A stretch of 54,023 nt of DNA from Blastocatellia bacterium (lineage in GTDB: Bacteria; Acidobacteriota; Blastocatellia; RBC074), in contig JAYVRW010000291.1 of NCBI GenBank assembly GCA_043775925.1, forward strand, positions 1 to 54,023, written 5' to 3'. Positions 5,503-54,023 of this stretch are shown here, one piece after another. The notes below the pieces were generated by a model. That model made no database searches, was not told the origin of the DNA, and was given only the letters and a program-made list of their open reading frames with translations. Position 1 is the first letter of the stretch; each line of letters begins with the position of its first letter. The position numbers and the translations under genes were made by a program.

Positions 5503-5632
5503 ACAAGCAGTCAGAATAGCTTACAAATGCGAGGTGGTACAGCCGCCGGAAGCCTCATTGCCGACCACAAAAACATGATATTCGTGGAACCTTTTTTGTG
5601 ATATAACGTGTCTACAATGTGTGTGGTTTGTG

Positions 5633-5680
5633 TGAGGTGGTCGGGACTCTATAAACCGAGGAAGGCCGCCTCCTTTTTTT
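5633..5680 (+). terminator. Intrinsic terminator-like hairpin (GAGGTGGTC...GGCCGCCTC plus T-run) upstream of pilN
   Basis: 9-bp stem with two G-U pairs followed by CTTTTTTTT. Confidence 0.45.
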
Positions 5681-5797
5681 GCCACCTGCTATTTTTGAGA
5701 AGGGGAACCGACAATATGTTATATTCCTCGCGTTTATCGCCCCTGAAATTCATACTTTTGTTCTGTTTTTTTCCATCAACCCGACGTTAGAGCCAAT

Positions 5798-44699: not shown

Positions 44700-46853
44700 C
44701 TACTCCTCGCCCCGAAAGTTGGCTAAATTCTTGCGCCAGATTTCAGCCCTTGGACTCTGAATTTCCGTATGAATCCTCAACGCCGCTTCTGTGAGGGTAA
44801 TCGCTTTTTTACGTTCCCCAAGCTTGTTGTAAGCAAGACCAAGATGACCAAGACGATTGCCTTCACCCCGACGGTCACCGATCTCACGTGAAATGGGAAT
44901 TGCCTGCTCGTAAAAAGAAATGGCTTGGGACAGGTCGCCGAGATGGTCGTAAGCAAGACCAAGATTGCAAAGGTTATTACCTTCGCCTCGATGGTCACCA
45001 ATCTCACGTGTGATAACGAGAGCTTGCTCGTGGAAGGAAATAGCTTTGTGCGCGTCGCCAAGGTTGTCGTAAGCAATACCAAGATTGCCGAGAACAGCGC
45101 CTTCGGCGCTACGGTCACCGATTTCACGTGCGATGATGAGAGCCTGCTCGTGAAATGAAATAGCACAGGGTAAGTCGCCAAGGTTTTTGTTGGCGATACC
45201 AAGATTGCCTAGGTGATTGCCTTCGCTCCGGCGGTCACCGATCTCACGTGCGATAACGAGAGCCTGCTCGTGAAAGAAAATGGCTTTGTGCGTGTCGCCA
45301 AGGTTTTCATACGTGATACCTAGATTGCCGAGCCATATACCTTCGTTTCTACGGTCGCCGATCTCGCGTGAGATGATGAGTGCCTGCTCGTATGAAGAAA
45401 TAACTTTGGGTACGTCGCCGAGATTGGCATAAATGTTACCAAGGTTGCCAAGGTGAGCGCCTTCGCTTGCGCGGTCGCCGATTTTTTGCGCGGCTTTGAC
45501 AGCCGCTCCAATAATCGGAATTCGTTCGCTTGGTATTATTCGCATGTACATCAGGTTAATGAAAGAGTAGCCATACAGATTACAAATTCGTGAGGCTTCC
45601 TCATCTTGCGCTAGTCGCTTTTCTACCCATTGTTGTCCTGCAAAGATGTTCTCACGCTCAGTCTCAAATCGTTTGATAGCAGCAAGCTGAAGTGCGTGAT
45701 TGCTGCCCATAAATTCATCATCGGCATTGCTCGCCAAGACAAGGTAATACCGAGCAAACCGCATCTCTGCGGTATAGTTTTCACCTTCTGCGCTCTTGTC
45801 TTTCGCATACACGCGCACGAGGTCGTGCAGGCGGTAGCGTTTTGTCTCAAGGCTGTAATTGACCAGGCTGCGTTTGAGCAATTCAGAGAGGGACTGGTGT
45901 TTTTCGTCTGCGCAAATCGCTTCTGCCGCTGCCGCATCGAACGAAGCAGGGAAGGCGGACAGGTTGCGAAACACGCGCTGTTGCGCTTCGCTCAGCCGCG
46001 CATAGCTCAGATTGAACGAAGCCGTCACGCTTAAATCTTCATCGTTGACGCGCTCAATTTCCTTTAGACGATTTTTCTCATCGCGCAATTCGTTCAGGTA
46101 ATCGGCTGCGTCAAGATCAATTTCTACGTCGAGCAACGTCGCTGCGGCACGAATTGCCAGCGGCAAATATCCGCACAATTTACAAATTTCATTGGCGATG
46201 TCAGGAGCTACGCCGGACTTGATGGCGTTGAATAATTCGCGGGCTTTATCCGGCGGCAGCGTTTCCAGATCAAGGTGCGTCAGCCCCGGCAATTTGATTG
46301 GATGCCGCGACGTAATCAGCAATGCGCAATTGGGCGGCGGCAAAAATGGACGTACCTGTTCGGGTCTGTGCGCATTATCGAGCAGGAGCAGGACAGGCTT
46401 ATTGCCGAGCGTGTGCAGGTACAATTGCGTGAGTTCGGCAAGTGAATCTGGCAACTTGATTTCATCTTTGTAAAAAGCGCGAATGACGAAGCCGAGCGCA
46501 GTTTCTGGCGAAGTCGGATGGTCGGAAGTCCCTTGTAAATCTACGCGAAGTTGCGCGGGAAAATCTTGCATGAGTTCGTGTGCGACTTTGAGCGCGAGTT
46601 CCGTTTTGCCGACACCACCCATTCCCTTAATGCCACCAATCGCCGCGCCGGCGCCGTTCCTGATTGCTTTCACGAGATCGGCTATTTCACGTTCGCGTCC
46701 AACGAAATCACTGACAGGCGCACGCATCTGTAAGGTTCGCTGCGGAGAGAAATAAATCGTATTGCCATCGCCAGTAACGATGACGCCAGTATTATTTACT
46801 GCATAGACGTTGCGGTTGCCGGATTGTGTGGTGTGAGAATTGGGTTGTTCCAT
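44700..46853 (-). CDS. NLR-like STAND ATPase (NB-ARC plus TPR) with an N-terminal amyloid-like signalling motif
   Basis: FVGRE, Walker A GMGGVGKT, Walker B LLLLDNA, LITSR, GYLPLAI, LHDLV; six 40-aa LGNLG TPRs; N-terminal QSGNRNVYAVNNTGVIVTGDGN. Confidence 0.92.
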   Translation of the reverse strand: MEQPNSHTTQSGNRNVYAVNNTGVIVTGDGNTIYFSPQRTLQMRAPVSDFVGREREIADLVKAIRNGAGAAIGGIKGMGGVGKTELALKVAHELMQDFPAQLRVDLQGTSDHPTSPETALGFVIRAFYKDEIKLPDSLAELTQLYLHTLGNKPVLLLLDNAHRPEQVRPFLPPPNCALLITSRHPIKLPGLTHLDLETLPPDKARELFNAIKSGVAPDIANEICKLCGYLPLAIRAAATLLDVEIDLDAADYLNELRDEKNRLKEIERVNDEDLSVTASFNLSYARLSEAQQRVFRNLSAFPASFDAAAAEAICADEKHQSLSELLKRSLVNYSLETKRYRLHDLVRVYAKDKSAEGENYTAEMRFARYYLVLASNADDEFMGSNHALQLAAIKRFETERENIFAGQQWVEKRLAQDEEASRICNLYGYSFINLMYMRIIPSERIPIIGAAVKAAQKIGDRASEGAHLGNLGNIYANLGDVPKVISSYEQALIISREIGDRRNEGIWLGNLGITYENLGDTHKAIFFHEQALVIAREIGDRRSEGNHLGNLGIANKNLGDLPCAISFHEQALIIAREIGDRSAEGAVLGNLGIAYDNLGDAHKAISFHEQALVITREIGDHRGEGNNLCNLGLAYDHLGDLSQAISFYEQAIPISREIGDRRGEGNRLGHLGLAYNKLGERKKAITLTEAALRIHTEIQSPRAEIWRKNLANFRGEE
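44745..45480 (-). repeat. 120-bp tandem repeats encoding TPRs
   Basis: GGTC(A/G)CC(G/A)AT recurs at exactly 120-bp spacing (about 44873, 44993, 45113, 45233, 45353, 45473). Confidence 0.9.
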
Positions 46854-46897
46854 ATCAAATCCATGTCATGTAATTGTCCCTGTAAAATTGCGGAGCT

Positions 46898-47044
46898 TTG
46901 TGGCTTTGCTACCGGATGTGCGGAAGGTCTGTGACCTTCCGAGGGAATGTTCTGTATTGGGCTACGCCCGGGCGTAGCCCAATACAGAGAGAATCGTTTT
47001 CGGTCAGGCACAGCCTAACCGCACATCAGGCGGCACAGCCGCAA
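46898..47044. repeat. MITE/REP-like palindromic element, family A copy 2
   Basis: GATGTGCGG ... ATTGGGCTACGCCCGGGCGTAGCCCAAT ... AACCGCACATCAGGCGGCACAGCCGC, matching 17548-17724. Confidence 0.7.
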
Positions 47045-47100
47045 TACAAGAGTCGTAGTATTTACAGAAAAATTAAGGTAGTGGGTAAATTGGGTGGGAT

Positions 47101-47190
47101 GTGTCAGTAGTCCGACGGTGAAGGAGGGCTGGCTTCGGCACTACGCCCATTGAGAGGCAGCCCTCGCTGACGCGCGGGCTACTGACACAC
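47101..47190. repeat. REP-like palindrome, family B
   Basis: GTGTCAGTAGTCCGACGGTGAAGGAGGGCT...AGCCCTCGCTGACGCGCGGGCTACTGACAC; related to 8161-8228. Confidence 0.75.
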
Positions 47191-47219
47191 CGCCTCACCT
47201 GATTGCACCACTACCAAAA

Positions 47220-47630
47220 TTATTTCTCAATCTTGTTCTTATCGCCCGTCATAATCGTGCCGGAATTGCTACCGCCGATATTCACATTGCGATCACCGGA
47301 TTGAATGACGGTGTTGCCTGATTGCAACTGCTTGAATTCTTCCAGCAATGACGGATGTGCGGCTAAGACTCTGGCTAATTCTTCCTGCAACGTGATTTTG
47401 CTGCCATTGGATTCAGGTTTGTTGATGACGGCTTCCGCTGCCTTCACAGCTTCTTCGTCGTCAATCACTTTGAAAAAATATTTCTCGACAAAAGCTTTTC
47501 CGTTGGCAGTCGCTTCGCCAAACAACTTTTTTGAGGCTTCGCCAACAACGGTGTCTCCGGTTTTGGTGACGATGAATTTGGCAATATCGGGTAAGAGCGA
47601 AACCAACGGGGCTAAGGCGGTCATGTCCAT
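47220..47630 (-). CDS. Bell/HeLo-like helical effector with a C-terminal amyloid-like (BASS/RHIM-like) motif
   Basis: 136 aa from the ATG at 47630 (GGAGA RBS); hydrophobic N-terminal helix, GEASKKLFG, AAEAVINKPES, LQEELARVLAAHPSL, then QSGDRNVNIGGSNSGTIMTGDKN. Confidence 0.85.
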   Translation of the reverse strand: MDMTALAPLVSLLPDIAKFIVTKTGDTVVGEASKKLFGEATANGKAFVEKYFFKVIDDEEAVKAAEAVINKPESNGSKITLQEELARVLAAHPSLLEEFKQLQSGNTVIQSGDRNVNIGGSNSGTIMTGDKNKIEK

Positions 47631-47952
47631 ATTTTCAATCTCCAAATCAAGGGGCAACGATTGTCGGTTACTTACCCGTCAATGGTTTTTGGACAACGCT
47701 GCGAGAAATACTGCTGAGTCTGTGGGTAAGCAGCGTCATCTTATGAAATTGTTGTAATGGACGGCAAGAAAAATATTAGTGTTGCCGAAATGGTTCGTTG
47801 TTCAGAGTCCACGCTTCAGCGTGCTTTCTGCCGACCGCGAAGCGCTGAACCCTTACACTCTGAAATAAAAAAAGGGGGCGCAGTACAATGCTGCGCCCGT
47901 AATCAGTTCTCCTACTTGTGAAAATATCCGATTCATTCTTCGGACAAGCTTG

Positions 47953-50900
47953 TTACCGAATCTTGACGGAGAACCCGACTTCTCCAGTATGGTTCGGTGA
48001 AATTTGACTTAGCGTTCCTGCGCTCACCCTCCATCTGACGGCTTTGACGTTGCGGTCGTAGCCGGTGTCTGCACTGCCACCACCGCTCACCGGAACATAA
48101 GTCCAAGTCGCGGTGGCAGGTGTGGCGGCTACAAAATCATTGGAGAATTCAGCCACCATTGTGAGTCCGGTCGTCCCCAGCGTCATGGTTTGAGACCCTA
48201 ATTTATAATCCGTATCATTCGGGATGGGATCAAAGATCACGAGTTGTTGCGCGGCGGCATTACCTGTATTGGTGAAGACGATCTGGTAGGTCAAATCGGT
48301 TCCCGGTTGTTTATCGCCAGTGGGCGTGACTGCTTTGACCAGCGTCACGAGGGGGAGACCTGTAATCGTGAAAGTGGTGGGATCAACTGAAGCCGTGATG
48401 GTCTGCGAGACGGAAGTGACGGGAATCGTCAAGTTGTAAGGAGCGGCAGCAATTATCGCCGAGAGGTCAGCGGTCGCGCCAGCGTTGTCAGTGAGAACAC
48501 CAGCGGCAAGTAATTCCGTGCCAGTGCCTTTTGCCTGATTGCTGAGAATTCCGGTAGTTCCGGCATTGATGGTGACAGGAATGGTGACGGTGATGACACC
48601 ACCAACTTTCAGGACTCCACCAGCTGAAAGCAAATTACTGACTGCGCCTGCCGCTGCGCCCGTGTAACTCCCGTTAACGCTTGCCGTTGTGCCGGTTCCG
48701 GCAACTGTCACCGTTGGCGCACCGGCTAAGGTCAATCCAGTTGGGATTTGGTCATTAGCTTGGAAACTATTGATATTTGTGACACCCGTATTGAGATAGT
48801 TGATTGTGTAAGTCAAAGTATCGCCCGGATCAACGACGCTGTTTCCGCTGACATCGGTTGTTAGTTTGACCGATTTGTAGGCGGTAACCGCTTCAAATGT
48901 TGATGTCGAAGTTTGAATCGTTGAATCGGGTGAAAATTCGGAAGTGTTTCCGACTGCATCCGTTGCCGTCATCGTGATTGCATCGCCGGCAGCAAGCCCT
49001 GTTACTGCCAAGCTCGAATTAAATAACCCGTTTCCATCGGCAGTGATTGTTCCAAGATAGGTTTTACCTTCGCCGTGTGGGTTGCTTAAACCATCGCCTA
49101 AAATCACTTCGCCATCCTGGTCGGCTGGTGAGTTATCCGCTTTGTAAATGTCAATGGTCGCATTGGCAAACGCTACATTTCCAGCACCTGCGTTACCAAT
49201 AAAACCCTTCAAAGTAAGGTTTCCACCGCTCAAAACAGCACTGGTTGCAATTGGATAATCTATTCCATTGTTTGCTCCTGAACCAATCGAACCATTATTT
49301 GGGCTGACCAAATTATAATCTAAATCAATTCCTAATGAACCATTTTTGAAAATAGAATTACCACGAATCGTGTTATTTGTTCCGCTTGCCATATTAACCC
49401 CTGTCACAGTTGAAAAGGCAATCACATTTTTTTGTCCGGGAGCGATCCCACCAATAATGTTATTTGAGGCGGCTGAGGCTATATTGAGTGCAAAAACACC
49501 AAATTTGTTTGGTAAGGCTGAAACACCTGTTTTTTCAGTTCCAATTAAATTGCCATAGAAAGTATTTGTGTTGGCAGATGCGTCCAGATAAATACCTTCA
49601 TTTGTATTTCCTGAAATTAAATTACCTTCGCCGGAATTGCTACCACCAATTTGATTGTTTGAGGTAGAAGCTAGATAAAAACCTTGATTGTTTGGAATAG
49701 CACTCGTGCCATTGATGTCAGTCCCAACATAGTTACCCTGCACAGTGTTATTGGTGCTATTAGTATTGATTACAATCCCTATCACATTACCGCTGACAAT
49801 ATTTCTCGCGGTGGCGGTTGCTCCACCAACTAAGGTATTTGTTGAGGTGATAATTGCTATTCCGTGTCCGTTTGTATTGCCAAGTCCGGCTAAACCATCG
49901 GCGGTAGTTCCAATTAAATTCCCTTGAATCGTAGTGCCTGCGGTAAGTCTGATTTCAACTCCGGCTTCTGACGCGTTACCACTAATCAAATTACCTGCAC
50001 CGGTTGCCGTTCCACCAATTAAATTATTACTTCCTGCACTGACCAATCTAATTCCGGAACTAATCTGCCCCAGAATTGCCGTGCCGGAAATATTTGTTCC
50101 AATATAATTTCCCTGCACAGTATTGTTACTCGCGGCTGAATTTCTAAAATCAATACCTTTGTAGTTACCAACTACTAAATTACGGTCTGCTCCTGTTGTG
50201 CCGCCAATTTGATTACTAGAACCAAAGACGAGGATACCTGCACCCATTCTTCCAACGAGAGCAGTTCCGGCAGGATTACTACCGATATTGTTACATTGGA
50301 TTGTATTGCCGGTAGAGGTAGAGTTGATTCTTATCGCAAACATATTGCCATAGAGTGCTGCTAAAGAGTGATTCATATTGATAGTCAGCCCACGCACAAT
50401 ATTATTATTACTGTTGATGCCAAACATATTTGTGCCATCAGGTAAACTTGGTCCGGAAACCTGAATTAACAAATTACGCGGCGAGGCAGAAGCACCGGGT
50501 TGGGTCGTGCCATCAACGGCTGTATTGTTATCCGTGATAGTCGTTCCCGCAGAAGTGAATGTTACTGTTGCAATACCGCTACTTGTATAATCAAGCGATG
50601 AACGCAATCCCGCCGCAGCCGTGCCATTACTAATCATAAAGATTGAGGTTTCTTTTCCGGCAGTTTGCCCGACTTGGGCAAGTCCGGCGTTGGTTAAAGT
50701 GTTTGAATTTGTGATGAATTGACGCAACGAGCCTTGTCCGCTGTCGTTAGTATTAACAATCGTATCGAAGTTGAATCCAAAATCTACTCCTGTAATATTT
50801 GAAGCTCCAACTGTTACCGGAGCAATTGATTCGGCTGTTGTTGATGCTGTCGTTAATGCGGCAAGCGTTGTTGAGCCATTTCCGGCATCTGCTAAACTTG

Positions 50901-53900
50901 GTGTTTCTCCGCCAACTCTCGCTGTATCCGCGACGGCTGTTCCGGTTGATGCGTTTGTTCGATATGTTTGAACAGGCAATAATCCCGCAATTGAACCCGG
51001 TCTTGATGACGTTACGCTTGAATTTACAACTCGAACAGTATAATTTCCGCCGGCTAAACCCGCGAATGAATAATCGCCAGTCGCGTTTGTGGTTGTAAAT
51101 GAAACGAAGTTTCCTGCCGAATTAAATAATTCAACTCTCGCATTCGCACGAATTACGCCACTCGAAGTGGCTAAATCGCGTCCGGCTCCGCCGCCATAAT
51201 TGACATCTTCAAACACTTTACCGCCCAGGCTTAATGTGGCGGCGGCAATGGGGACAGTGGTGGGGTCAATCGTCGCGGCAATCGTCTGCGAGACGGAAGT
51301 CGCAGGAACAGTTAAATTGAAAGGAGCCGTGGTCACCGTGGCAGGTAAATCAGCGGTCGTGCCAGCATTGTCGGTAAGCACACCAGCGGCCGGTAATTCC
51401 GTACCTGTACCTTTGGCCTGATTGCTGAGACTGCCAGTGGCGCCGGCATTGATGGTGACCGGGATGGTGACGGTGATGACACCACCGATTTTCAGGACGC
51501 CACCAGCGGCGAGTAAATCCGAGACGGCGCCAGCGGCGGCTCCGGTGTAGGAAGCATTGGCAGTTGCGACGGTTCCCGTGCCCGTTGGCGTGACGGTGAT
51601 AGCGCCGGCTTTGGTGAGTCCGGCTGGCAACGCATCATTGATCTGGAAGGCATTGATATTGACGACGCCGGTGTTGGCATATTGCAAGGTGTAGGTCAGC
51701 GTATCGCCGGGCGTGATGGAACTGCTGGTGTCCGCATCGGTCGTCAGCTTGACGGATTTGAAGGCAAGGACGGAATTGTAGTTCACGGTGAAGTCGGCAC
51801 TGAATTCCGAGGTGTTGCCGAGACTGTCGGTGGCGGTCATCGTGATGGCGTCACCTGCGGCGAGTCCGGCCACGGCGAGGGAGGTATTGAATAAGCCATT
51901 GGCATCGGCGGTGATGGAGCCTAAATAGGTTATACCTTCGCCGTGTGGTTGGCTTAATCCATCGCCGGAAATCACTTCACCATTTTGATTGGCAGGTGAG
52001 TTATCTGCTTTGAAGATTTCGATGGTGGCATTGGCAAAGGTGGCATTTCCCACTCCCGCGATGCCGATGAAGCCTTTCAAACTTAGATTTCCACCGCTCA
52101 AGACGGCACTTGTGGCGATTGGATAATCCATATTATTATTTGGGAATGCTCCGAATAATAATCCGTTATTTGCTGTTACATTGTCTTCCGAATAATCTAT
52201 GGACAATCCAGCATTATCAAAGATGCTATTTTGACTAATTTTATTGCCTCTTCCTCCAAAAACGACAATGCCTGCTCCAGGTTTCCCCGGAGTGCCTGTT
52301 GTCTGGCTGATTATATTCTTTTCCAATAATGAGTTGTCGTTGCCAACAGATGCGCCAAGCTTGCAACCCCTTGTCATTGTATTGTTAAGAATTGTTGTTG
52401 TGGCAAGGATTTCAATAAAAGATCCGCCGGCGGCGTTAGGCGGATAAACGCTACAATCGTAATCGTGGAAAAGATTTCCGGTTACAGTTGTCGAAGCCTG
52501 CAAACTAAGAAAGTCACCATCAAGCGACGAATGATTGCCATGGTCGGTTCCGTTAAAAGCAAATTCGTTATTAGTAAATTGACTGCCTGCAGCGGTCGAT
52601 GCAATTGCTGCCGCGTAAAAGTTATACGCGAAATAATTATTTGAAAAAGATGAAGGACTATACATTAAAAATCCGCCTTGAGCGTTTTGTAACGCTCCTC
52701 CAGGATTTGAACCGTCTGCCAGGGTTCCAGCAAATAGTTGTTGATATTGTCCGTTGGTTGCCGATGCGTTAGCTATAACTCCATAGAAACTGCTATCGTA
52801 AAACGCAAATCCTTTCATAAAGACGTTGCTACCATCTACATACATTATCGTATCTGACATCGCTATCACAATTTCAGGCTTAGGAATGGTTGAAAGACTC
52901 AATCCGTCAACGCCAACCGTTCCGCCTGTGCCAACTGTTCCAGCATTCGTGTTGCCAACATTGACAGTTTGCGTGGTCGCATCAATCGAGGTATTTGAAT
53001 CTGAGATGACTGGCAAGGCTGATGCTAATGTAATTACTGCCGCACTAGTGTTTCCGCCCGTTCCATTAATTCCACTCGTCAAACCAGATCGCAATCCGGC
53101 GTGAGCCACGCCATCAGGAATCATAAAGATTGACACTTCTTTGCCGGAAGTTTGTCCCACTTGCGCAAGACCAGCATTCGTCAGAGCGTTTGAATTGGTG
53201 ATGAATTGGCGCAATGAACCTTGTCCAGTGTCGTATTTGTTGACAATGGTGTCGAAGTTGAAGCCGAAATCCAGTCCGGTGACATTGGTCGCGCTGAGTG
53301 TGACGGGAGTGATGGATTGGGTGGCGGTGACTAAGGTCGTCAACGATGACAAGGAGGCACTGGTGGTATTGGCGGCCGCATCCTGAAGGTCAGGCGCTTC
53401 GCCGCCAACTCTGGCGGTATCCGCGACCGCCGTTCCGGTGCTGGCATTGGTGCGGAAAGTCTGCACGGGCAGCAGTCCGGCGACATAACCTGAACGTGAA
53501 GAGGTGACGGATGAATTCACGACACGAACGGTGTAATTGCCAGCAGTTAAGCCCGTGAAGGAATAATCGCCAGTGGCATTGGTCGTGGTGGAACTGACAT
53601 ACGCGCCCGTAGCGTTATAAAGTTCGACGGTGGCATTTGGACGAACCACGCCGCTTGAAGTGGCTAAATCGCGTCCGGCTCCACCGCCGTAGTTGACATC
53701 TTCAAATACCTTACCGCCCAAACTGTATGTGGCGACAGCGGCAACCGTGACAGTGGTGGGATCAAGGGTGGCAGTAATCGTCTGCGCGACGGAAGTCGCG
53801 GGAATAGTTAAATTGTATGGAGCACCTGTAACCGTGGCGGGCAAATCAGCGGTCGCACCAGCATTGTCGGTGAGCACGCCAGCAGCCAGTAATTCCGTAC

Positions 53901-54023
53901 CAGTGCCTTTGGCTTGATTGCTGAGACTGCCAGTGGCGCCGGCATTGATGGTGACCGGGATGGTGACGGTGATGACGCCGCCGACTTTCAGGACGCTCCC
54001 GGCGGCGAGTAAATCAGAGACCG
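47953..54023 (-). CDS. Very large repetitive surface protein/adhesin (DUF11, SdrD-B-like and right-handed beta-helix modules); 5' end outside the window
   Basis: More than 2000 aa open to the window edge; repeated GKVFEDVNYGGG, VNxxDxGQGSLRQFITNSN, GNTSEFS, KSVKL..PGDTLTYT; GN-rich parallel beta-helix repeats. Confidence 0.9.
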   Translation of the reverse strand, partial: VSDLLAAGSVLKVGGVITVTIPVTINAGATGSLSNQAKGTGTELLAAGVLTDNAGATADLPATVTGAPYNLTIPATSVAQTITATLDPTTVTVAAVATYSLGGKVFEDVNYGGGAGRDLATSSGVVRPNATVELYNATGAYVSSTTTNATGDYSFTGLTAGNYTVRVVNSSVTSSRSGYVAGLLPVQTFRTNASTGTAVADTARVGGEAPDLQDAAANTTSASLSSLTTLVTATQSITPVTLSATNVTGLDFGFNFDTIVNKYDTGQGSLRQFITNSNALTNAGLAQVGQTSGKEVSIFMIPDGVAHAGLRSGLTSGINGTGGNTSAAVITLASALPVISDSNTSIDATTQTVNVGNTNAGTVGTGGTVGVDGLSLSTIPKPEIVIAMSDTIMYVDGSNVFMKGFAFYDSSFYGVIANASATNGQYQQLFAGTLADGSNPGGALQNAQGGFLMYSPSSFSNNYFAYNFYAAAIASTAAGSQFTNNEFAFNGTDHGNHSSLDGDFLSLQASTTVTGNLFHDYDCSVYPPNAAGGSFIEILATTTILNNTMTRGCKLGASVGNDNSLLEKNIISQTTGTPGKPGAGIVVFGGRGNKISQNSIFDNAGLSIDYSEDNVTANNGLLFGAFPNNNMDYPIATSAVLSGGNLSLKGFIGIAGVGNATFANATIEIFKADNSPANQNGEVISGDGLSQPHGEGITYLGSITADANGLFNTSLAVAGLAAGDAITMTATDSLGNTSEFSADFTVNYNSVLAFKSVKLTTDADTSSSITPGDTLTYTLQYANTGVVNINAFQINDALPAGLTKAGAITVTPTGTGTVATANASYTGAAAGAVSDLLAAGGVLKIGGVITVTIPVTINAGATGSLSNQAKGTGTELPAAGVLTDNAGTTADLPATVTTAPFNLTVPATSVSQTIAATIDPTTVPIAAATLSLGGKVFEDVNYGGGAGRDLATSSGVIRANARVELFNSAGNFVSFTTTNATGDYSFAGLAGGNYTVRVVNSSVTSSRPGSIAGLLPVQTYRTNASTGTAVADTARVGGETPSLADAGNGSTTLAALTTASTTAESIAPVTVGASNITGVDFGFNFDTIVNTNDSGQGSLRQFITNSNTLTNAGLAQVGQTAGKETSIFMISNGTAAAGLRSSLDYTSSGIATVTFTSAGTTITDNNTAVDGTTQPGASASPRNLLIQVSGPSLPDGTNMFGINSNNNIVRGLTINMNHSLAALYGNMFAIRINSTSTGNTIQCNNIGSNPAGTALVGRMGAGILVFGSSNQIGGTTGADRNLVVGNYKGIDFRNSAASNNTVQGNYIGTNISGTAILGQISSGIRLVSAGSNNLIGGTATGAGNLISGNASEAGVEIRLTAGTTIQGNLIGTTADGLAGLGNTNGHGIAIITSTNTLVGGATATARNIVSGNVIGIVINTNSTNNTVQGNYVGTDINGTSAIPNNQGFYLASTSNNQIGGSNSGEGNLISGNTNEGIYLDASANTNTFYGNLIGTEKTGVSALPNKFGVFALNIASAASNNIIGGIAPGQKNVIAFSTVTGVNMASGTNNTIRGNSIFKNGSLGIDLDYNLVSPNNGSIGSGANNGIDYPIATSAVLSGGNLTLKGFIGNAGAGNVAFANATIDIYKADNSPADQDGEVILGDGLSNPHGEGKTYLGTITADGNGLFNSSLAVTGLAAGDAITMTATDAVGNTSEFSPDSTIQTSTSTFEAVTAYKSVKLTTDVSGNSVVDPGDTLTYTINYLNTGVTNINSFQANDQIPTGLTLAGAPTVTVAGTGTTASVNGSYTGAAAGAVSNLLSAGGVLKVGGVITVTIPVTINAGTTGILSNQAKGTGTELLAAGVLTDNAGATADLSAIIAAAPYNLTIPVTSVSQTITASVDPTTFTITGLPLVTLVKAVTPTGDKQPGTDLTYQIVFTNTGNAAAQQLVIFDPIPNDTDYKLGSQTMTLGTTGLTMVAEFSNDFVAATPATATWTYVPVSGGGSADTGYDRNVKAVRWRVSAGTLSQISPNHTGEVGFSVKIR

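Follow-up and report, generated by a model that had tools for sequence, protein, structure and literature searches.

A stretch of 54,023 nt (positions 1 to 54,023) of contig JAYVRW010000291.1 of a Blastocatellia bacterium (assembly GCA_043775925.1), hereafter referred to as the window, carries two neighbouring genes that probably constitute a two-gene module of the Bell/BASS amyloid-signalling type, in which a small effector and a NOD-like receptor (NLR) are linked by a common sequence motif. As read from the open reading frames (ORFs) and their translations, both genes are co-oriented on the minus strand, with the effector gene upstream and the NLR gene downstream. The motif stands at a protein terminus in each product, C-terminal in the effector and N-terminal in the NLR. 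An earlier examination of the same DNA, made from the letters and a list of their ORFs (the sequence-only reading), had quoted these ORFs and both motif peptides, which are present in the sequence as it stated, and its central claim that effector and NLR share a motif is borne out by the score statistics given below.

The shared terminal motif

A BLASTP comparison of the effector tail with the N-terminus of the NLR revealed 15 identities over 32 positions, with one gap (E 9e-5, for a single comparison). The Smith-Waterman score of the effector motif against the NLR N-terminus is 61, a value reached by none of 20000 shuffles of that N-terminus (mean 22.1, sd 4.5, maximum 50). When the N-terminal 45 amino acids (aa) were ranked by the same score for every ORF of 100 aa or more in this 5.7-Mb genome, the adjacent NLR came first out of 7678, with 61 versus 43 for the runner-up, itself the partner of a paralogous effector in the same genome. 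A profile of 12 close effector homologues, searched against the genome in six frames, matched the effector and the NLR N-terminus only (E 0.0023), and the wider family profile (A2) also matched the NLR N-terminus in its own genome (E 0.0046).

The composition of the motif is biased towards N (3.7x), G (2.3x), V (1.7x) and I (1.8x), with little K (0.7x), neither P nor L (0 each) and no enrichment in Q (0.95x). When aligned, 12 effector tails and four NLR N-termini agree in the core pattern Q-x-x-[ND]-[RH]-N-[VL]-x-[IFY]-x-x-x-[NA]-x-x-x-x-x-T-G-[DN]-x-N. The distance from NV to TGD is 10 residues in the window NLR, 11 in the effector and in P0110 and P0111, two fragments of related NLRs, and 12 in the NLR of a related locus designated L003 (see below). 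A complex prediction with two copies of NLR residues 1-45 and two of effector residues 97-136 (alignments A3 and A1) gave a score of 0.23 for a mark of 0.32, which speaks neither for nor against the pairing.

The motif had been likened to the RHIM-like BASS3 type, and this assignment fails: the core G-phi-Q-phi-G that RHIM, PP and BASS3 have in common, according to the available text of Dyrka et al. (2020, bioRxiv 10.1101/2020.01.06.895854), occurs neither in the effector nor within the first 60 aa of the NLR. The shorter phi-Q-phi-G is also absent, the sequence reading V-I-Q-S-G with the Q replaced by A in most relatives, and no RHIM or Ses_B/PP family of Pfam matched the motif peptides at E<=10. 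The motif belongs, as a local variant, to a widespread type, G-x-R-[SN]-V ... T-G-D-x-N, and not to BASS3; because this type is common in the family, it is expected to belong to one of the described BASS classes. A full-text literature search with six motif strings returned no published text matching them.

Two Pfam families come close to the effector. EAD10 (PF19954) matched residues 95-132 with 15.8-16.5 bits (E 0.009-0.014), below the Pfam cut-off of 24.1, and none of 48 family members matched it at E<=0.01. HetE-N (PF20701) had no match on the window effector at E<=1 and reached 14.2-14.8 bits on close homologues, below the cut-off of 25; a precomputed PF20701 tag, stemming from another model version, is attached to nine of the 11 close homologues. 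EAD10 is described in the available text of Kaur et al. (2021) as fused to TPR-GreA/B-C-PIN proteins, the architecture of the sensor Agp discussed at the end, and the resemblance of the tail to EAD10 together with this architecture is, at the sequence level, a hint of kinship and not of membership.

Conservation and co-variation in related loci

The sequence-only reading had pointed to homologous loci as the place to look for co-occurrence of the genes and co-variation of the motifs, and both were found there: the pair is kept in L003, and six pairs fall into three motif types. L003, from a genome deposited as 'MAG: Blastocatellia bacterium' (MAG, metagenome-assembled genome; G401), is the one related locus that the species-level genome collection yielded. 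Its effector is 61% identical to that of the window and is followed by a 137-nt spacer and an NB-ARC/TPR protein with the motif at its N-terminus (...SNMGNRNVHIEGDATDTIIITGDGNKVI), here with a one-residue insertion. The flanking genes of L003 (sulfatases, peptidase) are unlike those of the window, suggesting that the pair travels as a unit. P0110 and P0111, which were recovered from metagenomes by a word-index search of shorter proteins with NLR residues 1-45, are N-terminal NLR fragments, 85-89% identical overall, that carry ...TQSNNRNVSIEGDNYGIIVTGDGNTI; the same search among near-length proteins gave no match.

Other features of the L003 genome were recorded. The first 50 residues of the L003 NLR (5549-5695) matched Gp5_C, an 8-residue beta-helix repeat known from phage T4 gp5, with 22.1 bits versus a Pfam cut-off of 20.4; this match is probably driven by composition and is consistent with a beta-solenoid-like propensity of the motif. 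Elsewhere in the same genome (C150:40247-40894), two more matches to the motif part of the family profile (E 2.8e-8 and 2.8e-7) lie close together within two open frames, of 339 and 442 aa, and may be other effector types with the same motif.

Searches with profile A2 brought up two additional Bell-like genes in the genome of the window and others in the phylum, and reading of their neighbourhoods added four pairs (Table 1). When the six effector tails were scored against the six partner N-termini in a 6 x 6 matrix (six pairs, four genomes), three motif blocks were distinguished, with scores of 38-86 within and 18-44 between blocks. The window and L003 form one block (59-62), the pair of genome G016 the second (86), and the pairs of C236, C212 (both contigs of the window's own genome) and genome G137 the third (38-58). 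The G016 proteins have 19 of 21 aligned residues in common, in a variant of their own (ITASGDRSVAAQNINAPVII). The motif thus changes jointly on both genes, as a recognition code predicts.

The C236 and C212 effectors measure 125-126 aa, and their partners start with a matching but different motif (e.g. VTQTGDNNQAAQDIHGSTIN versus ISQDGSFNIGIQNVTNSPIN). The C236 and G137 partners consist of coiled coil and TPR, with no NTPase domain in Pfam scans; no Walker A was seen by eye in the C236 partner.

Fusions were also encountered. A 966-aa all-in-one protein in G266:C138 (L022, 2615-5515), from another genome of the phylum, has an N-terminal Bell-like domain (E 1.9e-25) followed by NACHT and then by an FGE-sulfatase-like region. 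At a distance of 3 kb downstream, L022 has a second Bell-like gene (174 aa, G/A-rich tail), beside another protein, of 952 aa, with an FGE-sulfatase-like end. At L023 (6262-9003; G064:C15), a 151-aa Bell-like gene is placed divergently beside a P-loop protein longer than 715 aa, and the two have no common terminal motif; this member of the family stands outside the collinear paired arrangement.

A wider view was obtained from 80 metagenome loci fetched with a narrower alignment (A4) of relatives. Seven had no complete effector frame, and nine lacked a co-oriented ORF within reach downstream; of the other 64, 13 were dropped by script for a mis-framed or motif-less tail, leaving 51 usable loci. 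In 35 of these (21 non-redundant at 90%), the downstream N-terminus matched the effector tail with a Smith-Waterman score of at least 50, the maxima against 7678 unrelated N-termini being 43-50. The two genes lie within 10 nt of each other in 31 of the 35 matched pairs (median gap 6 nt, maximum 313 nt), and of the 24 partners of which 300 aa or more could be seen, 19 have a Walker A.

The effector and its family

The effector starts with MDMTALAPLV..., residue 2 being Asp (N-terminal sequence MDMTALAPLVSLLPDIAKFIV). The AlphaFold2 (AF2) model, computed from a 12-row alignment (predicted template modelling score, pTM, 0.70), consists of six helices over residues 3-105. Over residues 1-100, the block-mean predicted local distance difference test (pLDDT) lies at 80-96; from residue 107 onwards, where a disordered tail is predicted to begin, pLDDT falls below 50. 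Helix 1 (residues 3-22) is the most hydrophobic of the six, with a mean Kyte-Doolittle value of 1.49.

Eleven close homologues were retrieved by word-index search, nine from metagenomes at 83-88% identity and two at 59-61%, and all 11 begin M[DS]I. Among 1.84 billion representatives, a hidden Markov model (HMM) search found 97 relatives at E<=1e-3 (median 142 aa), of which 72 have D/E at position 2-3 and 58 carry the tail G-x-R-[SN]-V...T-G-D. The closest language-model (Atlas) clusters are cyanobacterial hypothetical proteins of 137-153 aa, and one neighbouring Atlas cluster has HetE-N on 12% of its members. The Bell-like helical domain is rare in the phylum sample, where 11 of 401 genomes were positive at E<=1e-3. 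With the close-family profile A1, the window's own genome was the sole match among these 401 genomes, and no match was confirmed in JGI metagenome contigs. The effector matched no family of PADLOC or NCBIfam.

The NLR gene, the spacer and the genomic context

Behind the N-terminal motif, Pfam finds NB-ARC, beginning at about residue 50-64 with nothing else between motif and NTPase, and TPR matches over about residues 460-700 (TPR_12, E 1.5e-36). This agrees with the earlier statement that the NLR has no other N-terminal effector domain. Walker A (GMGGVGKT, residues 77-84), a Walker B-like LLLLD and then LHD were read in the translation. With NB-ARC over the cut-off, Walker A and C-terminal TPR repeats, the protein is a bacterial NB-ARC-type STAND protein. 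It is the sole NB-ARC match in its genome (95% complete), in which no NACHT match was found. The coordinates of these features, and of the pairs found elsewhere, are collected in Table 1.

Table 1. Coordinates of the paired genes and associated features in the window, and of the pairs added by neighbourhood reading
Feature	Position	Strand	Basis or description
Effector gene, 136 aa (stop included)	47220..47630	minus	ORF; ATG at 47630 preceded by GGAG
Bell-like helical domain, effector residues 1-105	47316..47630	minus	six predicted helices (AF2)
Effector-side motif, residues 108-134, VIQSGDRNVNIGGSNSGTIMTGDKNKI, 27 residues	47229..47309	minus	alignment to NLR N-terminus
Inter-gene spacer, 366 nt	46854..47219	no strand	two long repeat elements that form hairpins
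NLR gene, 717 aa: N-terminal motif, NB-ARC and TPR array	44700..46853	minus	ORF and Pfam
NLR-side motif, residues 8-33, TTQSGNRNVYAVNNTGVIVTGDGNTI	46755..46832	minus	alignment to effector tail
NB-ARC NTPase domain, Pfam residues 64-259	46077..46664	minus	29.4 bits versus cut-off 23.5
TPR array, 40-aa (120-nt) units	44818..45482	minus	5.3 copies; 73-76% DNA matches
Terminator-like hairpin and T-run after upstream giant gene	47876..47898	minus	consensus scan alone; counts not above shuffles
Pair in own genome	C236:4059-6400 (L008)		126-aa effector and 571-aa partner
Pair in own genome	C212 (L006 1471-2868)		close paralogue of the C236 pair; cut by contig end
Pair in G137	L024 2545-4403		130-aa effector overlapping 489-aa partner by 4 nt
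Pair in G016, same family as the window's genome			156-aa effector and 913-aa NACHT/FGE-sulfatase partner

The spacer between the two genes includes a 38-nt perfect palindrome (46951-46988) and an element of about 140 nt (47077-47215), copies of which, 89-95% identical, were found by blastn on contigs C229, C398 and C416 of the same genome; a shorter piece (47006-47044) recurs on about nine contigs. As RNA, the spacer is predicted to fold into two long hairpins (-168 kcal/mol, z -11.45). These elements look like small palindromic mobile repeats, similar to miniature inverted-repeat transposable elements (MITE) or repetitive extragenic palindromic (REP) sequences. No Rfam family matched the spacer at its gathering score, and sub-threshold rows for microRNA hairpins and small RNAs were taken as chance. 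The pair had been described as apparently intact, which holds for the two ORFs, both of full length, and has to be qualified for the NLR motif, one residue short, and for the repeat-filled spacer of 366 nt. A consensus scan of the coding strand found no terminator-like site between the genes.

The flanking genes encode housekeeping proteins, namely aspartyl- and histidyl-tRNA synthetases (AspRS, HisRS), an HD/GGDEF protein, a dehydrogenase, a dienelactone hydrolase and an aldolase; a giant protein, probably of the surface type, lies among them. None of 10 neighbours matched PADLOC, and the pair lies outside an obvious defence island, as proposed earlier. GC content is about 0.50 over the pair and its flanks, which gives no hint of recent transfer. 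Just upstream of the pair, a giant ORF (47953-54021, minus strand) of more than 2022 aa runs off the end of the window; N/G/T-rich and beta-helix-like, with repeated segments, it probably encodes a surface or adhesin-like protein, and the stretch scanned had a weak DUF7619 match only. The terminator-like site located after this giant gene suggests that the pair is transcribed separately from it.

Weighing the interpretations

Several observations weigh against the view that effector and NLR form a module of the Bell/BASS type. The 366-nt gap, with its two strong hairpin repeats, exceeds that of every matched metagenome pair (n=35). The motif of the window NLR is one residue shorter than that of the effector and of its closest NLR relatives, P0110 and P0111, and has YAV at the place where NLR relatives have I-E-G and most effector tails I-G-G; the deletion and the missing I-[EG]-G could disturb the register of templating. 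The window effector scores 61 against its own NLR and 62 against the NLR of L003, cognate and non-cognate partners being alike within a type, so that specificity is seen between types only. As to the 80 metagenome loci, they were chosen via the effector-side motif and their effectors are just about 36% identical to that of the window; they therefore illustrate a habit of the family, not of this locus.

Structural comparisons add to these reservations. A Foldseek search of the effector model against the PDB returned generic helical bundles, with no match at E<=0.001. [quoted passage not shown] A PDB profile search with A2 found no Bab, HeLo or MLKL, and matched ankyrin-repeat proteins weakly, at their C-terminus (E 6e-4). 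The term Bell is applied here on the strength of the features described in the available text of the 2020 survey, the Pfam matches being sub-threshold (HetE-N E 0.03, EAD10 E 0.009-0.014). Of the Bell/HeLo-like effector proposed by the sequence-only reading, the helical bundle is confidently predicted, whereas its likeness to the HeLo/MLKL fold finds no counterpart among the matches that these searches listed. By analogy with known systems, we infer that amyloid forms and is cross-seeded and that the membrane is damaged, and the same holds for the trigger.

Among other explanations, it is rather unlikely that the motif acts as a non-amyloid homotypic adaptor, i.e. an effector-associated domain (EAD) in the sense of Kaur, Burroughs, Iyer and Aravind, in which a small folded alpha+beta module, carried by both proteins, would bring the effector stoichiometrically to the activated NLR with no templating by cross-beta folding. 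The sub-threshold EAD10 match does fall at the right place on the effector tail, and the fusion of EAD10 to TPR-GreA/B-C-PIN recalls Agp, but the match stays under its cut-off, the family members lack EAD10 at E<=0.01, and the tail is predicted to be disordered rather than folded. Moreover, the BASS11 motif of Agp, a protein of EAD10-type architecture, is experimentally amyloid according to the available text, so that the adaptor and amyloid descriptions may be the same thing. An improbable alternative is that of a decaying or uncoupled remnant, in which repeat insertion and the deletion in the NLR motif broke co-expression or templating. The spacer with its two hairpin elements, one of them copied on three other contigs, the close spacing (<=10 nt) of 31 of the 35 matched pairs elsewhere and the shortened NV-to-TGD distance would all fit such decay. 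Yet both genes are full length, Walker A, the Walker B-like segment and LHD are intact, the effector, at 83-88% identity to nine homologues from metagenomes, shows no sign of decay, and no terminator-like site separates the genes on the coding strand; the 137-nt spacer and one-residue motif insertion of L003 further indicate that both lengths vary naturally.

Finally, the likeness might be a chance one, between two low-complexity N/G/T-rich stretches of unrelated neighbours. The composition is indeed biased, and in whole-ORF scoring a neighbouring 1974-aa N/G/T-rich repeat protein reaches a raw score of 63 somewhere along its length, which means that composition alone can yield such scores in very long proteins. 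This explanation is already contradicted by the comparative data and deserves hardly any credence: neither the shuffles nor the 7678 ranked N-termini reproduced the match, the motif is terminal in both proteins, it is kept in L003 and co-varies in five other pairs, and the same arrangement recurs in 35 of 51 wider-family loci.

Proposed mechanism and significance

If the pair is a Bell/BASS-type module, its mode of action may be sketched by analogy with fungal NWD2/HET-S, Bell/BASS and Bab/Agp. The TPR array would sense a ligand and the NB-ARC module would oligomerise, clustering several N-terminal motifs. The clustered motifs could then take up a cross-beta fold able to template the effector tail, upon which the hydrophobic helix 1 would be freed from the bundle to damage the membrane and kill the cell, as regulated cell death or abortive infection. 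The prion-like cell-death or abortive-infection system envisaged by the sequence-only reading is consistent with the gene layout, the conservation in L003, the co-variation and the Bell/BASS features, while amyloid and death are extrapolated from the known systems.

This work extends the Bell/BASS-type layout of NLR and effector to Blastocatellia-like Acidobacteriota, a modest extension. In the text of the 2020 survey, matched pairs are listed in Actinobacteria, Cyanobacteria, Archaea, Bacteroidetes and Chloroflexi; Acidobacteriota are not among the phyla named there, although its supplementary tables may list some. A literature search on amyloid signalling with NLRs in Acidobacteria found no report. 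The novelty of an acidobacterial pair had nevertheless been overstated, as Fig. 1C of that survey (Dyrka et al. 2020) already shows a Bell-domain protein from the acidobacterium Granulicella, and matched pairs also occur in G016, G137 and the Blastocatellia MAG. Nothing fundamental is changed, the type of system, its logic and its experimental basis having been published before.

The more interesting by-product lies in the pairs whose partner has no NTPase. The C236, C212 and G137 partners may be NTPase-free sensors for the same kind of signalling, and if they truly template the effector, bacterial amyloid signalling would not need the STAND oligomerisation engine, and would also be at work in acidobacteria not known to be filamentous, at housekeeping loci instead of defence islands. 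A tentative and still doubtful generalization is that Blastocatellia-like genomes carry a small repertoire in which one Bell-like executioner family is wired to different sensors via distinct, co-varying motif 'addresses', these sensors being the NB-ARC/TPR NLR and at least two NTPase-free coiled-coil/TPR proteins per genome (C236 and C212 of the window's genome; G137). These loci, in which a single effector family bears three types of motif both within genomes and between close relatives, provide a compact natural test set for motif specificity, in which one NLR-side motif bears a natural one-residue deletion.

Comparison with known systems

In the available text of Dyrka et al. (2020), Bell/BASS effectors are proteins of 120-140 aa with a helical domain of about 100 aa, a hydrophobic N-terminal helix and an acidic residue at position 2 or 3, Bell being defined by HMMER from ONI86675.1. 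BASS motifs measure about 25 aa, and are rich in Q, N, G, V and I and poor in K, P and L. The partner is a collinear NB-ARC or NACHT gene within 5 kb, at <=10 bp in 57% of collinear pairs. In published work, BASS motifs form prions and fibrils, the NLR side converting the Bell side. The window effector resembles this description in its length of 136 aa, helical domain of about 100 aa, hydrophobic helix 1 and Asp2, and in its C-terminal motif, of which a collinear NB-ARC/TPR protein within 5 kb has a second copy at its N-terminus. The bias in composition (Q apart), the internally similar TPR units and the all-in-one fusions of related genomes are further points of likeness. The pair of the window differs in its spacer of 366 nt, in belonging to another phylum and in a motif that is not BASS3.

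According to the available text of Ibarlosa et al. (2024, bioRxiv 10.1101/2024.11.07.622273), Bab/Agp of E. coli ECOR25 is an abortive-infection system operating via the BASS11 amyloid motif, and Agp has the TPR-GreA/B-C-PIN architecture; its N-terminal BASS11 motif was experimentally shown to be amyloid. Like Bab, the window effector is a small helical protein with a hydrophobic helix 1 and a C-terminal motif, adjoined by a TPR sensor that starts with the same motif; two other pairs of the same genome have TPR partners without NTPase, as Agp does. [quoted passage not shown] The PDB profile search gave no sequence match to Bab, and the structural match to Bab is tied with unrelated helical chains.

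The EAD10 and HetE-N families (Kaur et al. 2020/2021) match at the expected places, on the tail and on the helical domain of homologues, respectively, with all scans made here below the curated cut-offs. With the fungal NWD2/HET-S and HELLP/PNT1 systems, as described in the available texts, the pair of the window shares an NLR with an N-terminal motif, amyloid in the fungal systems and putatively so here, and a separate helical, membrane-targeting effector with a C-terminal motif; it differs from them in having no detectable HeLo sequence or fold match, and one motif copy in the effector versus the two pseudorepeats of HET-s. The occurrence of a fusion in one genome and of motif pairing in another corresponds to the alternation reported for NLR effector domains of both fungi and bacteria.

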